Positions 8,757 through 45,413 of a stretch of 64,000 nucleotides of DNA are shown here, one piece after another; position 1 is the stretch's first letter, and every line of letters starts with the position of its first letter. The position numbers were made by a program, and so were the translations under genes. The DNA lies in contig CAVTJJ010000005.1 of NCBI GenBank assembly GCA_963735035.1, positions 45,193 to 109,192 of the forward strand, read 5' to 3'. The stretch is from an uncultured candidate division Zixibacteria bacterium. GTDB lineage: Bacteria; Zixibacteria; MSB-5A5; GN15; FEB-12. The notes under the pieces were generated by a model. It was not told the origin of the DNA. It searched no databases and saw only the letters and a program-made list of their open reading frames with translations.

Positions 8757-8787
8757 AAAAAAAGACCGGGTCGAAACCCGGTCTCTT
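8757..8787 (-). terminator. Rho-independent terminator of RRM gene 1
   Basis: Minus strand AGACCGGG-TTTCGA-CCCGGTCT followed by a T run. Confidence 0.85.
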
Positions 8788-8833
8788 GTCTTGGCAGGTC
8801 GGCTTAAGGGCCGACCGATCTCGTTACTAATTA

Positions 8834-9133
8834 TTAGTAACGACGGCTGCCGCCGCCGCTGCCGCCACGATTACCGCCGCCACCGCCTTCGGTTTTCGGG
8901 CGCGCTTCGTTGACGTTCAACGTGCGACCGTTGAGGTCCTGACCGTTGAGGCCTTTGATGGCCGCAATCGCTTCAGTTTTTCCGGCCATTTCAATAAAGC
9001 CGAAGCCTCTTGATTCGCCGCTGAATTTGTCCTTCACGATGCTGGCGCTGGTGACTTCACCGTACGCACCAAACATCTGACGCAATTGATCTTCGGTCGC
9101 TTCAAACGACAGATTGCCTACGTAGATATTCAT
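8834..9133 (-). CDS. RNA-binding protein, single RRM with Gly-rich tail (RRM-1)
   Basis: RNP2 'IYVGNL', RNP1 'RGFGFIEM', tail 'GGGGGNRGG'. RBS GGAG places the start at ATG 9133. Confidence 0.95.
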   Translation of the reverse strand: MNIYVGNLSFEATEDQLRQMFGAYGEVTSASIVKDKFSGESRGFGFIEMAGKTEAIAAIKGLNGQDLNGRTLNVNEARPKTEGGGGGNRGGSGGGSRRY

Positions 9134-9311
9134 TCTACACTCCATGTTCGTTTATCCGCGGGGAGCATCTCGTCCGTTAGGATTCGCGCTAGTCGCGATA
9201 AACCTGTTGTTGCGCAATATTGCGCTGCGGTTCCGAGATTGGGCTTATGAAGATTTGCGTGAAACAACAAAGTCTAGACAAGAGAACCAGGGAAACCAAT
9301 CGTAACTACTT

Positions 9312-9340
9312 ACTATATCGGCGAAAGTTGAATAAGTCAA
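9312..9340 (-). promoter_or_regulatory. sigma70-type promoter of RRM-1
   Basis: TTGACT-N17-TATAGT on the minus strand. Confidence 0.7.
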
Positions 9341-9534
9341 TACATATTATCGACATTCAGGTACTATGTTTCGATCACACAAAGAGACCGATTCGAACCA
9401 AAAGAGCTTCATAGTGCGGGTTTATGGGCCGAAAGCGGCGTCGCGTGCTGTCGGGTGTCCCTGCCTGATGGCTGTTCGACAACGGTCCGTTCCGTCATTT
9501 CGCTCACTTCTCGTTATCCCCGTTCCCACAAACG

Positions 9535-38698: not shown

Positions 38699-38925
38699 GA
38701 TCGGCAAGGTTCCACCCCTGCCGTTTTATGTTCCGGCAGGCGCGGAGGCCTGCCGATTACGAGGCGTTCTGTTCCAGCAGGCGCGGAGGCCTGCCGATCA
38801 CGAGGGGATCTGTTCCGGCCGGCGCAGAGGCCTGCCGATTAAAGGGGGATTCGTCCCGGCAGGCGCGGAGGCCTGCCGATTAAACGAGGTTTTCTTTTCG
38901 GCAGGCGCAGAGGCCTGCCGATCAC
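38699..38925. repeat. Tandem array of five ~41-bp palindromic units
   Basis: CGGCAGGCGC(G/A)GAGGCCTGCCGAT core in units starting at 38731, 38772, 38813, 38854 and 38896. Confidence 0.92.
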
Positions 38926-38953
38926 TAGCGGCGAGCGCATTCAGAAATCTATC

Positions 38954-39895
38954 TCAGTTATCCTTCTCCAACCATTCCAACATAGCCTTGATGCTTCCAG
39001 TGGCTAGGGCGATGCTCGTGTCGGCGGCCCCGTAATAGACATGAATAGTATCCCCATCGGGAAGAATCGTTTGACCGCAGGGAAAAACCACATTCCCGAC
39101 GTCGCCTTGTAACTCGTAGGAATCCTCAGGACCAAAAATCCACTGACTGCCTCGTTTGAGACACACCTCAGGGGACTTCAGGTCGAACAGCGCAAGACCA
39201 AGTCGATATATCGCTCCCGCGGCGGTATGTCGCACGCCATGGTAGAGCATCAGCCAGCCCTTCGGAGTCTCGATCGGGGGAGACGAGAGACCGATCTTGT
39301 TAGCATCCCACCACCCACCACGGCGGGCTTCGAGCATGATCTTGTGACTACCCCAGTGAGTAAGGTCAGGCGAGTACGAAATCCAAATGTGCGCTCGGGG
39401 CGAACTGACCGGTCGATGAATCAGCGCCCAGCGACCGTCGATGCGATGCGGCAGCAAAGTAGCGTCTTTATCTTCCGGGGGCATGATTACGCCGTAGCGT
39501 TTGAACTGGCGGAAATCTTCGGTAGTCGCCAGCGCCACGCCTGGTCCGTCGCGAGTGAAAGCGGTATAGACAATGACATACTTACTCAGCTCAGGGACAT
39601 AAGTAATGCGTGGATCTTCAATGCCCCAAATCTCCTCGGGAAAATGCTCCGGATCCGGCATCAAAGTTGGTTCCGGATCAATCTGCCAGCCATCCAGGCC
39701 ATTGGCTGAGCGGGCCGCACAGAGATGAGACTGGCCGCGTCGATCTTCAACGCGACACAAGAGCAGGGTGGTGCCATCCGGCAACAACGTCGCGCCGGGA
39801 TTGAACACGCTATTAACAGGATAGGGCCAGTTCGTGGACGTTAACATCGGGTTGCGACTGTGACGCCGAAGAAGTTCGGGGTGCGAATTGCTCAT
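38954..39895 (-). CDS. GH130 family glycoside phosphorylase/hydrolase
   Basis: 'VFNPGA', 'GIEDPRI', 'EDKDA', 'IHRP', 'PPIETPKGWLMLYHGV', 'GDVGNVVFPCG', 'YYGAADT'. Confidence 0.93.
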   Translation of the reverse strand: MSNSHPELLRRHSRNPMLTSTNWPYPVNSVFNPGATLLPDGTTLLLCRVEDRRGQSHLCAARSANGLDGWQIDPEPTLMPDPEHFPEEIWGIEDPRITYVPELSKYVIVYTAFTRDGPGVALATTEDFRQFKRYGVIMPPEDKDATLLPHRIDGRWALIHRPVSSPRAHIWISYSPDLTHWGSHKIMLEARRGGWWDANKIGLSSPPIETPKGWLMLYHGVRHTAAGAIYRLGLALFDLKSPEVCLKRGSQWIFGPEDSYELQGDVGNVVFPCGQTILPDGDTIHVYYGAADTSIALATGSIKAMLEWLEKDN

Positions 39896-39916
39896 CAGGT
39901 ATGATTCTCCCACAGG

Positions 39917-42178
39917 CTAAAAAGTGTTCTCGGCCAGGCGCAGTTCCAGTAACGACTGGAGGAAGGCGAGCGTAGATTCGGCGCCGAGATTGGCGTTGGC
40001 GCGGTCGGGGTGAAGGCCGTCGCGACATCCCCCCGTAGTAGGGTCGTAGATAGATAGATTCAGATCGTTGCGTCCAAGGAACCATTCAAAGGCGCGTTGG
40101 GCTTCCTTGCGCCAGAGATCGTCATGAGTGATGCGATAGGCCTCGAGACAGGCCGACACCATGGCCTGGCCTTCGACTGGCTGCTGATCGAAGCGGGCGC
40201 GGTCGTGACCTCGTTGATAGAAGCCGTTGGATCCGATCGGGACAAAATGCCCGCCTTTGCCGGCTCGTTGAACGTTAGTCAACCAGGTGAGCGATTCCAG
40301 TCCGGCGTCGATCATGGCCGCACTCTGAACCGATTGTCCGCAAATAAGCGAAGCGTGGGGTAGGACGGCGTTGCAGTAGGTAAGTCCCTCTTCGTACCAG
40401 CGCCAGTCGTCCGAGCGACACTTCTTATACAACGACAGGAGACGCTGGGATAATACTTCCTGAACCTGGCTGGCGCGTCGATCTCCGGCAAACCGGTGGA
40501 GGTATTCATGGATGCCGATGAGCGCGAAGGCCCAGGCGCGAGGACTGGTCGTGTTGACAATGGCCGGCAATGCCCGCTCGAACAGCCACCCGGCCATACT
40601 CTGAAGCGCCGGGGTATGAGAGCGACCCAGAACCGTCCCGAGAGCCCACAACGCGCGGCCATGGCTGTCGTCGGAGCCGGTTGCTTCGAGCCAGGTACGC
40701 TGGTAGGTCATGAAATTGCGAAATCGTCCCGTCTCGGCATTGTACGCATACCAGATGAAAGCGAGATAGCGCGAGGCCAATTCGAAAGCCTCCTGATTGC
40801 CGACATCTTCGAGCAGCGCGCTCACCGTAAGGGCACGGGCATTGTCATCCGTGGTGTACCCTTCGTGATAATTCGGGATGGTGAAGATGGCATGCTGCAG
40901 GATACCGGTCTCGTCGGTCATGTTCAGCAGGTGATCGAGTTTCAGAGGCGGCAGTTCGCCCGGATGTTTATCGAGAGCCTTGACTGCAAAGCCCGGGTGG
41001 CTGAAATGGCGTCGACCGGCTCGCGCGCGCTCGAAAGTCTCGCGATAGCGACGAGCAACCTGCGGCCAGATCATTTCCCGTCCGAACAGGTAGGCGCGTT
41101 TGCGCATGGCATGACGTGCGGCTTCGTCACTCAACAGATCGTTGACCTTTCGGGCAAGAGCAGGCGGATCTCGAAACGGAACCAGAACGCCGCGCTCATC
41201 AGCCAGCATTTCTTCGGCGTACCAGTACGGTGTCGAGATTACTGCCTTCCCGGCGCCCAGTGTGTACGCGAGCGTGCCGGAAGTGATCTGCGCCTTGTTG
41301 AGATAGGGCGTGATGTATATATCCGCGGCTCCAATAAACTCAATCAGTTCTTCCAGACTAACAAAGCGGTTGTAGAAAATGACATTGCTCTCGACGCCCC
41401 GCTCACGCGCCAGCCACTGCAGCGAAAGACGATAGGCCTCGCCGTCGGTTTCTATGACGTGAGGATGCGTCTCGCCCAGAATTATGTAGACTACATTGGG
41501 ATGTACAGCCAGAATCTCGGGGAGGGCTTCGATGACATTCTCGATCCCCTTGCTGGCCGAAAGCAAACCGAAACTGAGCAGGACCATTTTCCCTTCGACA
41601 CCGAACAAATCCTTGTGAAAACTCGGGTCAACAAAGGGCACGTCGGGGATGCCGTGGGGGATGACGTCGATCTTGTCGGCAGACACATGGTAGATATCTG
41701 TCAGGAAATCTTTGCCGCGCTGGCTCATTACTACTAGTCGGTCAGAGAGAGTGACAATTTCTTCCAACACCGACCGCTGGTCCGCATCCGGTTCGAGCAA
41801 CACGGTGTGCAGGGTCGTGACAATCGGCATACGCAGTTCGCGAAGGAGCGCCAGGACGTGGCTGCCGGCCCTACCTCCGAAGATACCATATTCGTGCTGC
41901 AGACAGACCAGATCGACATTGTTGATATTCAAGAAGTCAGCCGCGCGGCGATATGATTCAATGTCTTTTTCGGTGAGCTCGAAACGAACGCGGGCGGGAT
42001 ATTCGTATCCTTCGTCGGTGTCATTCACCGGCAGGGCGATACAGGTCGTTCCTTCGCGTTCGGCGGCGACTGCTTCACACAAATCGGTGGTGAATGTAGC
42101 GATACCACAGCGTCGCGGCAGGTAATTGCCGACAAACGCAATGCGCTTGATAATCGGGCTGTCGTCGCCTTGTGGCAT
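39917..42178 (-). CDS. GT4 glycosyltransferase fused to a C-terminal glycosidase-like (six-hairpin-type) domain
   Basis: 'PRRCGIATFT', 'QHEYGIFGG', 'SFGLLS..KGIE', 'SGTL..GKAVISTPY', then 'GY.TDDNARAL', 'FDQQPVE', 'GGCRDGL', 'GAESTLA'. Confidence 0.9.
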   Translation of the reverse strand: MPQGDDSPIIKRIAFVGNYLPRRCGIATFTTDLCEAVAAEREGTTCIALPVNDTDEGYEYPARVRFELTEKDIESYRRAADFLNINNVDLVCLQHEYGIFGGRAGSHVLALLRELRMPIVTTLHTVLLEPDADQRSVLEEIVTLSDRLVVMSQRGKDFLTDIYHVSADKIDVIPHGIPDVPFVDPSFHKDLFGVEGKMVLLSFGLLSASKGIENVIEALPEILAVHPNVVYIILGETHPHVIETDGEAYRLSLQWLARERGVESNVIFYNRFVSLEELIEFIGAADIYITPYLNKAQITSGTLAYTLGAGKAVISTPYWYAEEMLADERGVLVPFRDPPALARKVNDLLSDEAARHAMRKRAYLFGREMIWPQVARRYRETFERARAGRRHFSHPGFAVKALDKHPGELPPLKLDHLLNMTDETGILQHAIFTIPNYHEGYTTDDNARALTVSALLEDVGNQEAFELASRYLAFIWYAYNAETGRFRNFMTYQRTWLEATGSDDSHGRALWALGTVLGRSHTPALQSMAGWLFERALPAIVNTTSPRAWAFALIGIHEYLHRFAGDRRASQVQEVLSQRLLSLYKKCRSDDWRWYEEGLTYCNAVLPHASLICGQSVQSAAMIDAGLESLTWLTNVQRAGKGGHFVPIGSNGFYQRGHDRARFDQQPVEGQAMVSACLEAYRITHDDLWRKEAQRAFEWFLGRNDLNLSIYDPTTGGCRDGLHPDRANANLGAESTLAFLQSLLELRLAENTF

Positions 42179-42417
42179 GGTCGGCAGGTTCCTTATTGAC
42201 AACGTTAGGTGATGGCAGGCTCACGAGCCTGTAGTGATGATCCAATTATCACTAGGTAGTCCCCACAGCACAAGAAATATCTGCATTAATGCGAGACAGG
42301 CTATTCCAGGTCAAATCACTGCCAGGCAGTAGCTACAGGTGCCGTATCCGATGGCATTTGGTCACAGGACACATGCTTGCAGAGGTCGCGCTCGTCGGCT
42401 GCTTCCGGTTATACTTA

Positions 42418-42573
42418 TCATGATCTTCTTTGATGGTCACGCTCTGCCGGCGTCATGAAATACGGCCGGGTGTTATCAGACCTCGCGCGGGCTGTTTGAC
42501 GGTTATGTGCCGCCAGGGCTCCGGCGAGAAACCCCGGTATCATGCCGACTATGATCCAAGCTACTACTGACAT
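42418..42573 (-). pseudogene. 51-codon ORF with a GlsB/YeaQ/YmgE-like N-terminus (probable remnant)
   Basis: RBS AAGGGA, then MSVVAWIIVGMIPGFLAGALAA followed by a hydrophilic tail. Later TM helices of the family are absent. Confidence 0.5.
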
Positions 42574-42646
42574 TAGTTGTCCCTTCAGAGTGTGAGCAAG
42601 AATGCGTGGGCGGCAGACGTCCTCGTCTGCCCCAAGTAAGCGAAAT

Positions 42647-42880
42647 CTATTCCTCTTGCACCTTCAGAACGTTGCCACCCAGTTCCTTCCCCTGCATGCC
42701 GATGATCGCCGCGCTGGCGTGGTCATTGGAGGGCATGTCCACCTGGCCGAAGCCTTTAGCTTCGCCGTGCACTTTGTACGCGCTGATGCTGCATTCGGCG
42801 ACCGGGCCGAACGGCTCGAAGCATCCGCGAAGTTCCGCCACCGAAGTGGCAGGTGATAGGTTTCCGACGTAGATATTCAT
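42647..42880 (-). CDS. RNA-binding protein, single RRM, divergent (RRM-2)
   Basis: RNP2 'IYVGNL', RNP1 variant 'KGFGQVDM', RBS AAGGAG. Confidence 0.88.
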   Translation of the reverse strand: MNIYVGNLSPATSVAELRGCFEPFGPVAECSISAYKVHGEAKGFGQVDMPSNDHASAAIIGMQGKELGGNVLKVQEE

Positions 42881-43110
42881 ACTACATCTCCTTTGGTTCC
42901 CATGTCACGGTTCGGGTATCGCCTGGTCACGATGCCGGAATACGCCGTGGTGACGCCTTATTGCGTCATTGTTACCTGATCAAGGGTTAGACAAGGATTG
43001 TTTTGCCGGGACAAAACTTGAGAAACGATCAATGGGTAGACACTAGGTCTATGTATAGTATACGTTTGAAACGCTCTAACGCCTACGTTTATTTCTGTCG
43101 GCGCCTTGTC

Positions 43111-43212
43111 TCGGCAGGCGCAGAGGCCTGCCGATTACAGGTGCAAAAACTGATCGGCAGGGTTCCATCCCTGCCGTTCTTCATTCGGTAGGCGCAGAGG
43201 CCTGCCGATCAC
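43111..43212. repeat. GATCGGCAGG-family REP hairpins
   Basis: TCGGCAGGCGCAGAGGCCTGCCGA and GATCGGCAGGGTTCCATCCCTGCCG. Confidence 0.85.
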
Positions 43213-43296
43213 GACCGCATGACGTCTTGTAGGTCGTGACCATTGTGCCTGCTCGCTGAGGCGAGGTCCCGACATTCCGCTTCAAACGCTGCTGCC

Positions 43297-43330
43297 AAAA
43301 AAAGGAGACCGGTCACAGACCGATCTCCTT
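43297..43330 (-). terminator. Rho-independent terminator of RRM-3
   Basis: Minus strand AAGGAGATCGGTC-TGT-GACCGGTCTCCTT followed by a T run. Confidence 0.85.
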
Positions 43331-43378
43331 CAAGATCAATGCCACAGCATTGCGGCCGTGGATTCGGTCAGGTCGAGA

Positions 43379-43669
43379 CTAGTAAACCTTGCGGTAGTTG
43401 TTATTACCACCACGGTTGCCACTGTCTTCGCGCGGCTTCGCCTGATTGACATTCCAGGCGCGGCCGTTCTGGTCGTGACCGTTGAGTCCGCTGATGGCCG
43501 CATTGGCCTCGGCCGCTGTCGGCATTTCGACAAAGGCAAAACCTTTGGGCTGGCCGCTGTCACGGTCGGTGATGACCTTGACGGTTGAAACTTCGCCGTA
43601 GCCTGAGAAGGCCACGCGCAATTGATCTTCTGTCGTATCATACGACATGTTGCCGATGTAGATATTCAT
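43379..43669 (-). CDS. RNA-binding protein, single RRM (RRM-3)
   Basis: RNP2 'IYIGNM', RNP1 'KGFAFVEM', 'VNQAKPRE'. Same GGAGTGTAGA-ATG start context as RRM-1. Confidence 0.95.
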   Translation of the reverse strand: MNIYIGNMSYDTTEDQLRVAFSGYGEVSTVKVITDRDSGQPKGFAFVEMPTAAEANAAISGLNGHDQNGRAWNVNQAKPREDSGNRGGNNNYRKVY

Positions 43670-43843
43670 TCTACACTCCATTCATATTACTCTTGACGAG
43701 GCCTGGCTGCATAGAGAAGCCGGTCATCTCAAGAGCGTTGATAAAGCGCATGATTGCGCGATCAATTCGAGATAGAACAATTTGGCGGAGAGTTGTAGAT
43801 TAGGACAAGACTTCGAGAAAAGGTCAGACTCAAATCAATGTTT

Positions 43844-43872
43844 ACTATACAGTATAACGGCATTTATGTCGA
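43844..43872 (-). promoter_or_regulatory. sigma70-type promoter of RRM-3
   Basis: TCGACA-N17-TATAGT on the minus strand. Confidence 0.65.
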
Positions 43873-44005
43873 AAAGCTACAGTTTAATTTGACTTTATTT
43901 GTCCATTTTTCGCACAAATCTTTCTGTGCGATACTGATTGAGAGGGTCAAAACGTGGAGGAAATAGCCTGTAAGCTCATGCCCGGTATGGAGTGTGCCCC
44001 TTCCG

Positions 44006-44535
44006 TGATCGGCAGGGTTCCATCCCTGCCGTTCTTCTTCCGGCAGGCGCAGAGGCCTGCCGATCACAGGGGGTAATCACCGTGCCCGGCAGATGCCCAC
44101 ATCTGCCGACGAAATACTGATCGGCAGGGTTCCATCCCTGCCGTTCTTCTTCCGGCAGGCACAGAGGCCTGCCGATCACAGGGGGTAATCACCGTGCCCG
44201 GCAGATGTCCACGTCTGCCGACGAGAACGCGACACCTTGTTCGTAGTTCCCAGCACCCCACTCCGTCATTCCCGGCTTGGCCGGGAATCCATGGGCCGTA
44301 GCGATCGATATTGCACCCGCTTCTACGTGAGCACCGAATTAACGCTGGGACAAGCGAGTTCTGCGCTCTCCCGTGTGACTGATCGCCTTATGCGGACGCG
44401 AGTGGTCATGGGTGCCCGACGTCTCGGGCATGACGGGACTAGTGTCCCGTTTCGCGGTTGGTGGCCCCAATCTATGATCGGCAGGGTTCCATCCCTGCCG
44501 TTCTTCTTCCGGGAGGCACAGAGGCCTGCCGATCA
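44006..44535. repeat. REP mosaic including a 112-bp tandem duplication
   Basis: Units starting at 44006 and 44118 each hold three hairpins. Further hairpins at ~44264, ~44412 and 44475-44535. Confidence 0.92.
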
Positions 44536-44616
44536 CGGGCGCACGAAGTGATTGACACGCTCCCATCACTGCATTATCAAACCGGCGTCCGAACAACAAA
44601 TACATGAGGCAACAAC

Positions 44617-45021
44617 ATGACTAACCACTTCGACGACCCGGTAAAACAGGAAATCTGGCAAACCCTGCGCGCGCTCAACGACGCCTGGACCAAGGGTCAT
44701 CCCGACGATCTGAACAATTACTTCCACAAAGACATGGTCGCGATTACGCCGATGGATCGCGGTCGTCTCGACGGTCGCGACGCTTGTGTGACGTCGTGGA
44801 CCAACTTCGCGAAGGCGGCCACGATTCACTATTGGAAGGAGCTCGAACCGAAGATTCAGGTGTATGGCCAGACGGCAGTTGTTACGTACTATTATGATAT
44901 GTCGTTCGACATGGGCGGGAAGACGATCACACTTCAGGGCCGCGACATGTTTACGTTCGTGAAGGAAGACGGCCGCTGGCGGGCGGTCGCCGACCAGTTC
45001 TCGCGCCAACCCACCGAATAA
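44617..45021 (+). CDS. NTF2-like (DUF4440/SnoaL-like) protein
   Basis: 'LNDAWTKG..DDL..YF', 'IQVYGQTAVVTY', 'VKEDGRWRAV'. Confidence 0.88.
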   Translation: MTNHFDDPVKQEIWQTLRALNDAWTKGHPDDLNNYFHKDMVAITPMDRGRLDGRDACVTSWTNFAKAATIHYWKELEPKIQVYGQTAVVTYYYDMSFDMGGKTITLQGRDMFTFVKEDGRWRAVADQFSRQPTE

Positions 45022-45032
45022 CGAGCGTTTCT

Positions 45033-45413
45033 GGTGCCCCACCGCTTGCGGTGGGTTTATACGTGGGCGGCAGAAACCGCCCCCGACTTGATCGGGGGTC
45101 CTCGTCTGCCCCAAATATCTTCAAGGGTTGTGATATTACGGAGCGCACGCTCCGTCACCCCGGTGAAAACCGGGGCCCAGTTGTGTTGGAAAGAGCGCAG
45201 ACGCCAATGTACAAGCATTCGTAGCGATGGGAGGAGTCAGGCATTACGCCGCTGCCTTAGCGATCACAACTGGGTCCCGACTTTCGTCGGGATGACGGGA
45301 CTAGTGTCCCGTTTCTTAGCTGATGGCCCCATTCTGTGATCGGCAGGGTTCCATCCCTGCCGATTACAGGGGGTAATCACCGTGCCTGGCAGATGCCCAC
45401 ATCTGCCGACGAG
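45033..45413. repeat. REP mosaic
   Basis: CCCACCGCTTGCGGTGGG, CCCCGACTTGATCGGGG, CCCCGGTGAAAACCGGGG, TCCCGACTTTCGTCGGGA, GATCGGCAGGGTTCCATCCCTGCCGAT and GGCAGATGCCCACATCTGCC. Confidence 0.88.

Follow-up and report, generated by a model that had tools for sequence, protein, structure and literature searches.

Single-RRM (RNA recognition motif) proteins are widespread in bacteria, and their RNA targets and regulation are largely obscure. The window analyzed here, i.e., the whole stretch of 64,000 nucleotides from an uncultured Zixibacteria bacterium of sediment, contains three genes of this kind on its minus strand (RRM1, RRM2 and RRM3), and positions 9134–9340 raise the question of what the long sequence ahead of RRM1 is. 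According to the original prediction, the three genes share a leader whose function may be autoregulatory or temperature-responsive. Comparative evidence identifies this region as the untranslated 5' leader of the RRM mRNA, a member of a new structured RNA family. Moreover, the sharing reaches further than had been proposed: the genome containing the window (3.6 Mb, 6 contigs) encodes five single-RRM genes, three in the window and two elsewhere, and a leader of the same kind, about 175 nt long from a sigma-70-type promoter to the start codon, was found at 5/5 of them.

The leader folds, from 5' to 3', into the elements P1, P2, P3 and P4, where P2 is the near-invariant GCGCAAUNNUGCGC and P3 is long and variable. 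In P1, a long stem, the RNA 5' end forms the closing strand, and the CTTGTC box lies inside as an inner stem. In RRM1 (minus strand, as for all leader features below), the P1 domain covers 9228–9298, UGGUUUC (9292–9298) pairing with GGAACCG (9228–9234), and a single-sequence fold places two inner stems within it, CUUGU (9278–9282) with AUAAG (9244–9248) and UUUG (9268–9271) with CAAA (9254–9257). The P2 hairpin (9212–9225) reads GCGCA-AUAU-UGCGC (GCGCAATATTGCGC), and its inverted repeat is a perfect palindrome in this copy. The long P3 hairpin spans 9150–9203 and is closed by GUUUAUC (9197–9203) and GAUAAAC (9150–9156), plus inner pairs. Finally, the initiation region (9122–9143) contains the Shine-Dalgarno (SD) sequence GGAG at 9140–9143, followed by P4, a start-codon hairpin in which GUAGA (9134–9138) pairs with UCUAC (9122–9126) and the AUG (9131–9133) stands in the 7-nt loop. 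The long-range P1 pairing, P4 and the two further genome copies add to the elements that had been recognized earlier.

Relatives were collected through proteins, a sequence pattern and a covariance model. Of the 31 genomes in the protein search (the genome containing the window and 30 relatives of the same order), 30 had RRM genes, and the upstream regions of the relatives' genes carried the same hairpin and start region. Scanning one genome per species for the pattern GCGCAATNNTGCGC-N45-75-GGAGNGTAGNATG yielded at least 121 loci. The covariance model, R1 (177 positions, 46 pairs), was derived from relatives, namely a subgroup of 47 leaders (subgroup A). When 100 sources were searched with it, full-length matches on the sense strand numbered 97 and came from all three subgroups, with no match in L009, L023, L026 and L032–L034. 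In the window, R1 scored RRM3 at 132.2 bits (43667–43845), RRM1 at 51.9 bits and RRM2 weakly, at 20.1 bits (E 0.006, over 42878–43039). Applied directly to 119 leaders aligned with MAFFT, RNAalifold recovered P2 alone. The other helices needed subgroup alignment and the covariance model, the three subgroups differing in their stem sequences. Within subgroup A, RNAalifold (47 leaders) returned P1 as 11 pairs between the RNA 5' end and the bases directly ahead of P2, with the inner stems CUUU/AAAG, CG/CG and UUGU/ACAA, of which the CTTGTC box forms the 5' strand. It also returned P2 as GCGCA/UGCGC and P3 as a 12-pair stem with two more inner stems, ending 6–10 nt before GGAG.

The conservation and covariation expected of homologous leaders were indeed observed. 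In the model alignment of 95 leaders, standard pairs occupied 85.3% of the cells vs. 69.4% in shuffles, and compensatory changes on both sides occurred in 42 of the 46 pairs, including 10/11 pairs of P1 (helix 1) and 12/12 pairs of P3 (helix 7), while P2 was paired in 99.2% of its cells. Both-side changes were counted in 713 cells vs. 259 in shuffles, with 0/500 shuffles reaching as high, and the covariation score of 0.418 compares with 0.06–0.09 when the partners were slid by 1–3 columns. Among the top 20 pairs by mutual information after average product correction (APC), 11 were annotated and 3 adjoined an annotated pair. An extra closing pair of P2 suggested by mutual information (columns 172–212) was rejected, CA, AA and UU, which are not base pairs, being its dominant combinations. 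The partner-swap test is alignment-free, as it compares the duplex energy of a leader's own arms with that of arms swapped between leaders, and it supports both P1 and P3: native P1 arms gave −9.7 vs. −7.0 kcal/mol for swapped ones (native better in 114/119 leaders) and native P3 arms −13.9 vs. −9.8 kcal/mol (106/119). Control pairs of unrelated segments showed no difference.

The last helix joins the leader to its gene. The arrangement GGAG-N-GTAG-N-ATG that had been described was seen in all three window leaders, and the GUAGA between GGAG and AUG is complementary to the UCUAC of codons 3–4 (AUC UAC, Ile-Tyr, in the RNP2 motif), pairing positions −1 to −5 with +8 to +12. The five core pairs of P4 are formed in 108–115 of 118 leaders, and GUAG and a coding-sequence CUAC are both present in 107/119, of which just 9 also have a CUAC upstream. 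Eight of the 119 leaders have GUAG without the coding partner, either with Phe or His for Tyr or with Tyr as UAU. In seven of these eight, CUAC stands directly 5' of the SD instead (as UCUACA-GGAG-UGUAGA in six of them, the SD forming the loop), and a G-U pair is retained in the eighth. Three leaders without GUAG also lack CUAC (3/119), and one further row is mis-registered. Distant families have other solutions; for instance, GAG pairs with CUC, a Leu codon, or codons 2–4 pair with the SD itself. These P4 counts are to be read knowing that the scan pattern required GTAG and that the leaders whose partner has moved form a single clade. As a side observation, four loci of distant families (L165, L166, L167 and L169) have a GUG start in the P4 loop (GGAGUGUAGA-GUG-AAU-AUC-UAC), with the hairpin unchanged.

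Several points weigh against a regulatory RNA built in this way. The 121 pattern loci were chosen for P2 and GGAGNGTAGNATG, so that invariance there is partly by construction; the smaller protein-derived and model-derived leader sets showed the same conservation of P2 and of the start region. The alignment behind the pair counts was fitted to R1, and the sequences are related, so the counts overstate the number of independent events. The RRM1 consensus fold lies 6.7 kcal/mol above the minimum free energy (MFE) fold, and the fold z-score is just −1.2; therefore, the case rests on comparison and not on the single sequence. For RRM3, the MFE fold corresponds to the whole consensus fold. P4 is almost invariant and so shows little genuine covariation, and the Ile-Tyr of RNP2 puts a further constraint on its 3' arm. 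In addition, the predicted accessibility of the SD is ordinary (unpaired 0.47 at 37 °C and 0.44 at 10 °C in 59 leaders). Lastly, GGAGUGUAG is complementary to the CU-rich 3' side of the P1 inner stems (e.g., CUACAACUCUCC in RRM3), but a specific long-range anti-SD pairing found no support, as native partners did no better than swapped ones in the swap test (native −9.31 vs. swapped −8.94 kcal/mol, native better in 66/118, p 0.07).

The association of the leader with RRM genes is nearly exclusive. In the 3.6-Mb genome, GCGCAATNNTGCGC was found in four RRM leaders only (reversed-pattern control, 0), and R1 at E ≤ 0.001 gave four matches, all RRM leaders. The genome also has three ordinary CSD cold-shock genes, on contigs C2, C4 and C6 outside the window, and R1 matches none of them; the idea that RRM proteins replace cold-shock proteins was dropped, given these three genes. 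Among the pattern matches listed, 121/121 are followed by an open reading frame (ORF) beginning M-[N/K]-I-[Y/F/H], and the RNP1 motif lies within the fetched flank for 119 of the 121. Likewise, 36 of the 37 R1 matches listed in genomes shared with the protein search end at the start of an RRM ORF. All matches fetched from distant families (18/18) likewise precede an RRM ORF, four of them with a GTG start. The exception among the 37 is an orphan leader in L160, a contig of a relative (~374–650; R1, 108 bits), where the SD is altered to GGAACGTAG and only ATG AAC ATC TGA follows, with a terminator-like hairpin about 80 nt later. It would be either what is left of an RRM gene after its deletion or a leader RNA standing alone, possibly as a decoy.

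Across the phylum, R1 matched 98 of 151 sampled genomes (own genome included), with 1–5 matches per matched genome. Excluding the own genome, matches were distributed over the families f1 (52/54), f3 (9/10), f4 (14/15), f5 (12/13) and f8 (4/5); in this sample, no match was found in f2 (0/3), f7 (0/11), f9 (0/5) and f16 (0/8). These counts are lower bounds, because R1 favors subgroup A and the filters of the larger search were stricter; the subgroup-A model probably under-counts diverged copies such as RRM2. Most related loci come from records titled Zixibacteria or GN15. A spread beyond the phylum, as read from titles naming Ignavibacteriales, Ignavibacterium or Deferrimicrobium, was not retained because these titles conflict with the genome taxonomy used; indeed, two such records share contig numbers and coordinates with genomes placed in the family or order of the window. 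A separate observation concerns L112/L161, a complete 4.7-Mb record labelled Deltaproteobacteria, which carries one leader and RRM gene of the subgroup A type (181.9 bits), whereas R1 had no match in 21 other genomes of its family. This suggests the transfer of a whole promoter-leader-gene cassette or a chimeric assembly, and the GC content of the flanks (0.43–0.64) does not separate the two.

Several features mark the leader as an RNA rather than a DNA element. The sense strand has many G-U pairs (e.g., UG:44 at pair 17–161 in the 95 leaders), and the AAU of the P2 loop is kept on one strand, its mirror not being conserved. A U-G variant of the P2 stem also occurs, in L178. On the antisense strand, R1 gave 11 partial matches of at most 25.4 bits, vs. 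20–188 bits on the sense strand. Furthermore, the leader stands in RNA libraries joined to its gene. Metatranscriptome contigs from four runs of four studies, representing relatives 80–95% alike, cover 8823–9305 only, with zero depth from 9306 upward and below 8823, and one contig spans 8874–9289, i.e., gene plus leader; any single sequencing run contains small shares of the window only. DNA carry-over is possible for these contigs, which come without level, strand or exact 5' end. Two contigs from different studies have their own ends within 2 nt of 9289, a weak hint of the transcript 5' end. The −10 box of RRM1 aligns with a family-wide CCGATATAnT, the conserved TATAnT lying 11 nt ahead of P1 in the family alignment, and by prediction the transcript begins a few nucleotides ahead of P1, at about 9300–9305 for RRM1. 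Because leader-spanning RNA contigs exist and the −10 box precedes P1 in this way, a start site downstream of the motif, which would have turned it into a DNA site, is unlikely, although the evidence is weak. No T-run follows P3 in the window leaders, and transcription attenuation is thus unlikely as well.

RRM1 (8834–9133) encodes 99 aa with one RRM domain and a glycine-rich tail (Pfam RRM_1, E 4e-23), RRM3 (43379–43669) encodes 96 aa (E 6.4e-21) and RRM2 (42647–42880) encodes 77 aa without the glycine tail (E 1.3e-15). The RRM3 leader (43670–43856) has its −10 box at TATACT (43851–43856) or TATAGT (43844–43849) and its SD at 43676–43679. P1 is formed by UUGAUUUGAG (43829–43838) and CUCGAAUUGA (43762–43771), with an inner UUGU/ACAA stem whose 5' strand is the CTTGTC box, and P2 is GCGCAATCATGCGC (43746–43759). 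P3 pairs CTCTTGAG (43728–43735) with (G)TCAAGAG (43690–43697), and P4 pairs GUAGA (43670–43674) with UCUAC of codons 3–4 (43658–43662). The RRM2 leader (42881–43062; −10 TATACT 43057–43062, SD 42888–42891) is the most diverged copy. Its possible P1, GUCUACC (43035–43041) with GGUAAC (42971–42976), was placed by eye and is bulged and weak, and an inner stem is formed by UUUUGUC (43010–43016) and GGCAAAA (43001–43007). P2 is TGACGCAATAAGGCGTCA (42951–42968), P3 pairs CACGG (42945–42949) with CCGUG (42906–42910), and the arms of P4 are GUAGU (42881–42885) and UCUAC (42869–42873). The small hairpins and the paired arms of the long stems announced for the three leaders are therefore all present in the sequence. 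The CTTGTC box fared less evenly: it was found at 9277–9282, 43804–43809 and 42990–42995, but the last of these, in RRM2, is probably not homologous, and TTTTGTC (43010–43016) is more likely to be its structural equivalent.

Since promoter-like sites stand 5' and a hairpin with a T-run follows each of the three window genes 3', the RRM units can be read as promoter, leader, RRM gene and terminator. The TATAGT promoters proposed for RRM1 and RRM3 were recovered as TTGACT-17-TATAGT and TCGACA-17-TATAGT, respectively. The RRM1 promoter occupies 9312–9340 (−35 TTGACT 9335–9340, 17-nt spacer, −10 TATAGT 9312–9317; 10/12 matches in a consensus scan), and the promoter-like site of RRM3 lies at 43872–43844. 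The terminator-like hairpin after RRM1 (8763–8784, minus strand) has a palindromic stem and a T-run 3' of it on the minus strand, which argues for a monocistronic RRM1 unit. ORF finders lengthen RRM1 and RRM3 by four codons, the upstream AUG being formed by the AU ahead of GGAG. This in-frame start (MECR-MNIY…; 9134–9145 and 43670–43681) was rejected, since the family does not conserve it and no SD would precede it. Tandem RRM genes, each with its own promoter, leader and terminator, are frequent, as in RRM3 followed by RRM2 (42647–43856) or the two genes of L030, and two relatives (G110 and G129) have paired leader matches about 650–850 nt apart on one contig. The intergenic spacers next to RRM2 and RRM3 are filled by a longer palindromic repeat resembling repetitive extragenic palindromic (REP) or miniature inverted-repeat transposable elements (MITE). 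Part of it is the 27-mer AACGGCAGGGATGGAACCCTGCCGATC, of which six copies at ≤2 mismatches were counted in 38699–45364 on the minus strand of the window (0 expected). This repeat yields recurring spurious ORF peptides (…GRPLRLPEEERQGWNPAD…).

As anticipated, the leader corresponds to no named RNA family. At gathering score, Rfam 15 detected two tRNAs only in the window. At E ≤ 10, nothing was found in 9100–9400, and the eight weak matches in 42850–43920 (E 0.034–6.2) either fell outside the leaders or had the opposite orientation; at E ≤ 1, nothing was found in 20 leader loci of relatives. Full-text literature searches found no description of such a leader, and the main text of the 224-motif paper (PMC5737381), with its supplements outside that scope, has no mention of RRM, RNA-binding protein, Zixibacteria or Ignavibacteri-. 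The closest comparison is Chlorobi-RRM (RF01697), the one catalogued motif ahead of RRM genes, a structured element from comparative genomics that is listed as a cis-regulatory candidate (Weinberg et al., 2010; PMC2864571). The likeness is a conserved structured element directly upstream of single-RRM genes. However, its Rfam model, through which alone the architectures were compared, gives no match on the present leaders. It also belongs to another phylum, the R1 search having covered the Zixibacteria phylum sample, and the present leader is longer, with about 175 nt and 46 modelled pairs plus P4.

What, then, may the leader do? From the sequence evidence above, the chances appear about even that it is cis-regulatory and acts on translation initiation or mRNA stability, probably through feedback by the RRM protein. 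P2 preserves its sequence whereas the other stems drift, suggesting that a macromolecule reads P2. Because, in addition, only RNA-binding-protein genes are tied to the element, RRM feedback is the simplest model. The leader would set translation initiation, and hence mRNA lifetime, of all RRM paralogs together, with the RRM proteins themselves as the most likely input. Excess RRM protein would bind the sequence-invariant parts, namely the P2 loop and stem, the AAUCU linker and the P4 loop with the AUG, and would thereby stabilize a closed initiation region on which the 30S subunit could no longer load. The outcome would be negative feedback along with cross-regulation among the five paralogs.

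Translational operators offer a precedent for such a design, as in the phage MS2/R17 coat-protein hairpin, which holds the replicase start codon, or the leaders of ribosomal-protein and ThrRS genes. The logic expected of such operators is that the protein made from the mRNA, or a partner of it, occupies the leader and keeps the 30S subunit from loading. The present leader resembles them in its small hairpin containing or adjoining the start codon, with structured domains upstream. It differs in that the candidate operator, as read from sequence alone, would serve five paralogs and that the P4 hairpin is partly made from codons of the protein's own RNP2 motif. Mutual regulation among paralogs is also documented for this type of protein. 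In Synechocystis, rbp1 mRNA rises on deletion of rbp2 and rbp3 (PMC12232666), and the plant glycine-rich RRM proteins AtGRP7 and AtGRP8 auto- and cross-regulate (PMC2602770). The protein type (one RRM plus glycine-rich tail) is the same, as would be the RNA-level regulation between paralogs. In contrast, AtGRP7/8 use alternative splicing and nonsense-mediated decay, where the present leader would act as a 5' untranslated region (UTR) on translation or stability.

The main rival is a temperature sensor of the cspA type, in which the 5' UTR would refold with temperature so that the mRNA persists and is translated chiefly in the cold, without protein input. The 5' UTR of Escherichia coli cspA is a structured thermosensor of about 160 nt that runs from the +1 of an RNA-chaperone gene and controls mRNA stability and translation. 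The present leader resembles it as a long structured 5' UTR of an RNA-binding or chaperone gene starting at a (here predicted) +1, with a small hairpin at the start site. A sensor of this kind would induce the glycine-rich RRM paralogs jointly, all serving as RNA chaperones in cold shock, and the presence of the leader at all paralogs is what a shared physical signal would predict. The gene products, with their single RRM and glycine-rich tails, are moreover of a type reported to be cold-induced in cyanobacteria (PMC12232666). However, the leader precedes RRM and not CSD genes, it has no Rfam cspA match, and the three CSD genes of the genome are not matched by R1. No temperature-dependent refolding was predicted, the SD and AUG being about as accessible at 10 as at 37 °C (SD unpaired 0.44 vs. 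0.47), in what is a crude test that does not separate the sensor from the other readings. The start-site hairpin would tighten in the cold instead of opening, and the strict conservation of the P2 sequence is untypical of pure thermometers. We thus regard a temperature sensor as rather doubtful.

Less probable still is a constitutive leader, in which P1 would shield the mRNA from 5'-end-dependent RNases and P4 would display the AUG in its loop for steady high expression. P1 starts within a few nt of the predicted +1, the SD is mostly outside P4 with the AUG in its loop, and the units appear monocistronic, with strong promoter-like sites and terminators, all of which fits. Yet 175 nt, four helices and an invariant hairpin go far beyond what 5'-end protection needs, and the SD sits in a closed tetraloop in one subgroup, which is inhibitory by design. 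A riboswitch or other ligand-sensing RNA coupling RRM synthesis to a small molecule or ion would account for a long, well conserved and covarying 5' UTR RNA absent from Rfam. It is very improbable, however: the RNA has three hairpins in series with no multi-stem junction and no conserved internal pocket, its conserved bases cluster in the small hairpin and at the start site, no terminator follows P3, and the associated genes encode only RNA-binding proteins, which fits protein feedback better than metabolite sensing. Hardly credible at all is a DNA operator, in which a transcription factor would bind the GCGCAATNNTGCGC inverted repeat and the rest would be incidental: although P2 is such a repeat and a perfect palindrome in RRM1, it lies about 90 nt downstream of the −10 box, its AAU is kept on one strand and its stem has a U-G variant, the neighboring helices covary with sense-strand G-U pairs, and RNA-library contigs cover the site.

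Feedback by the RRM proteins can be taken one step further. We consider it possible, though as a tentative proposal, that the leader is a dedicated operator of bacterial single-RRM proteins, with GCGCAAUNNUGCGC as the high-affinity site, a five-paralog circuit and orphan leaders as decoys. If true, the RNA-binding surface of the protein and its own operator would be encoded in the same nucleotides (AUC UAC, the RNP2 codons), and gene-less orphan leaders would titrate RRM proteins as decoy RNAs. As a structured leader of an RNA-binding-protein gene, the element is of a kind already known; what is unusual is the start-codon hairpin built on RNP2 codons. With this leader, the known structured RNAs of uncultured bacteria gain a well-supported family, found in a phylum for which metagenomes are the only source. 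It would be a second leader solution for RRM genes, unrelated in sequence and model to Chlorobi-RRM. For work on bacterial RRM proteins, this RNA, which is conserved, covarying and tied exclusively to their genes, supplies a candidate binding site together with a feedback circuit that can be tested.

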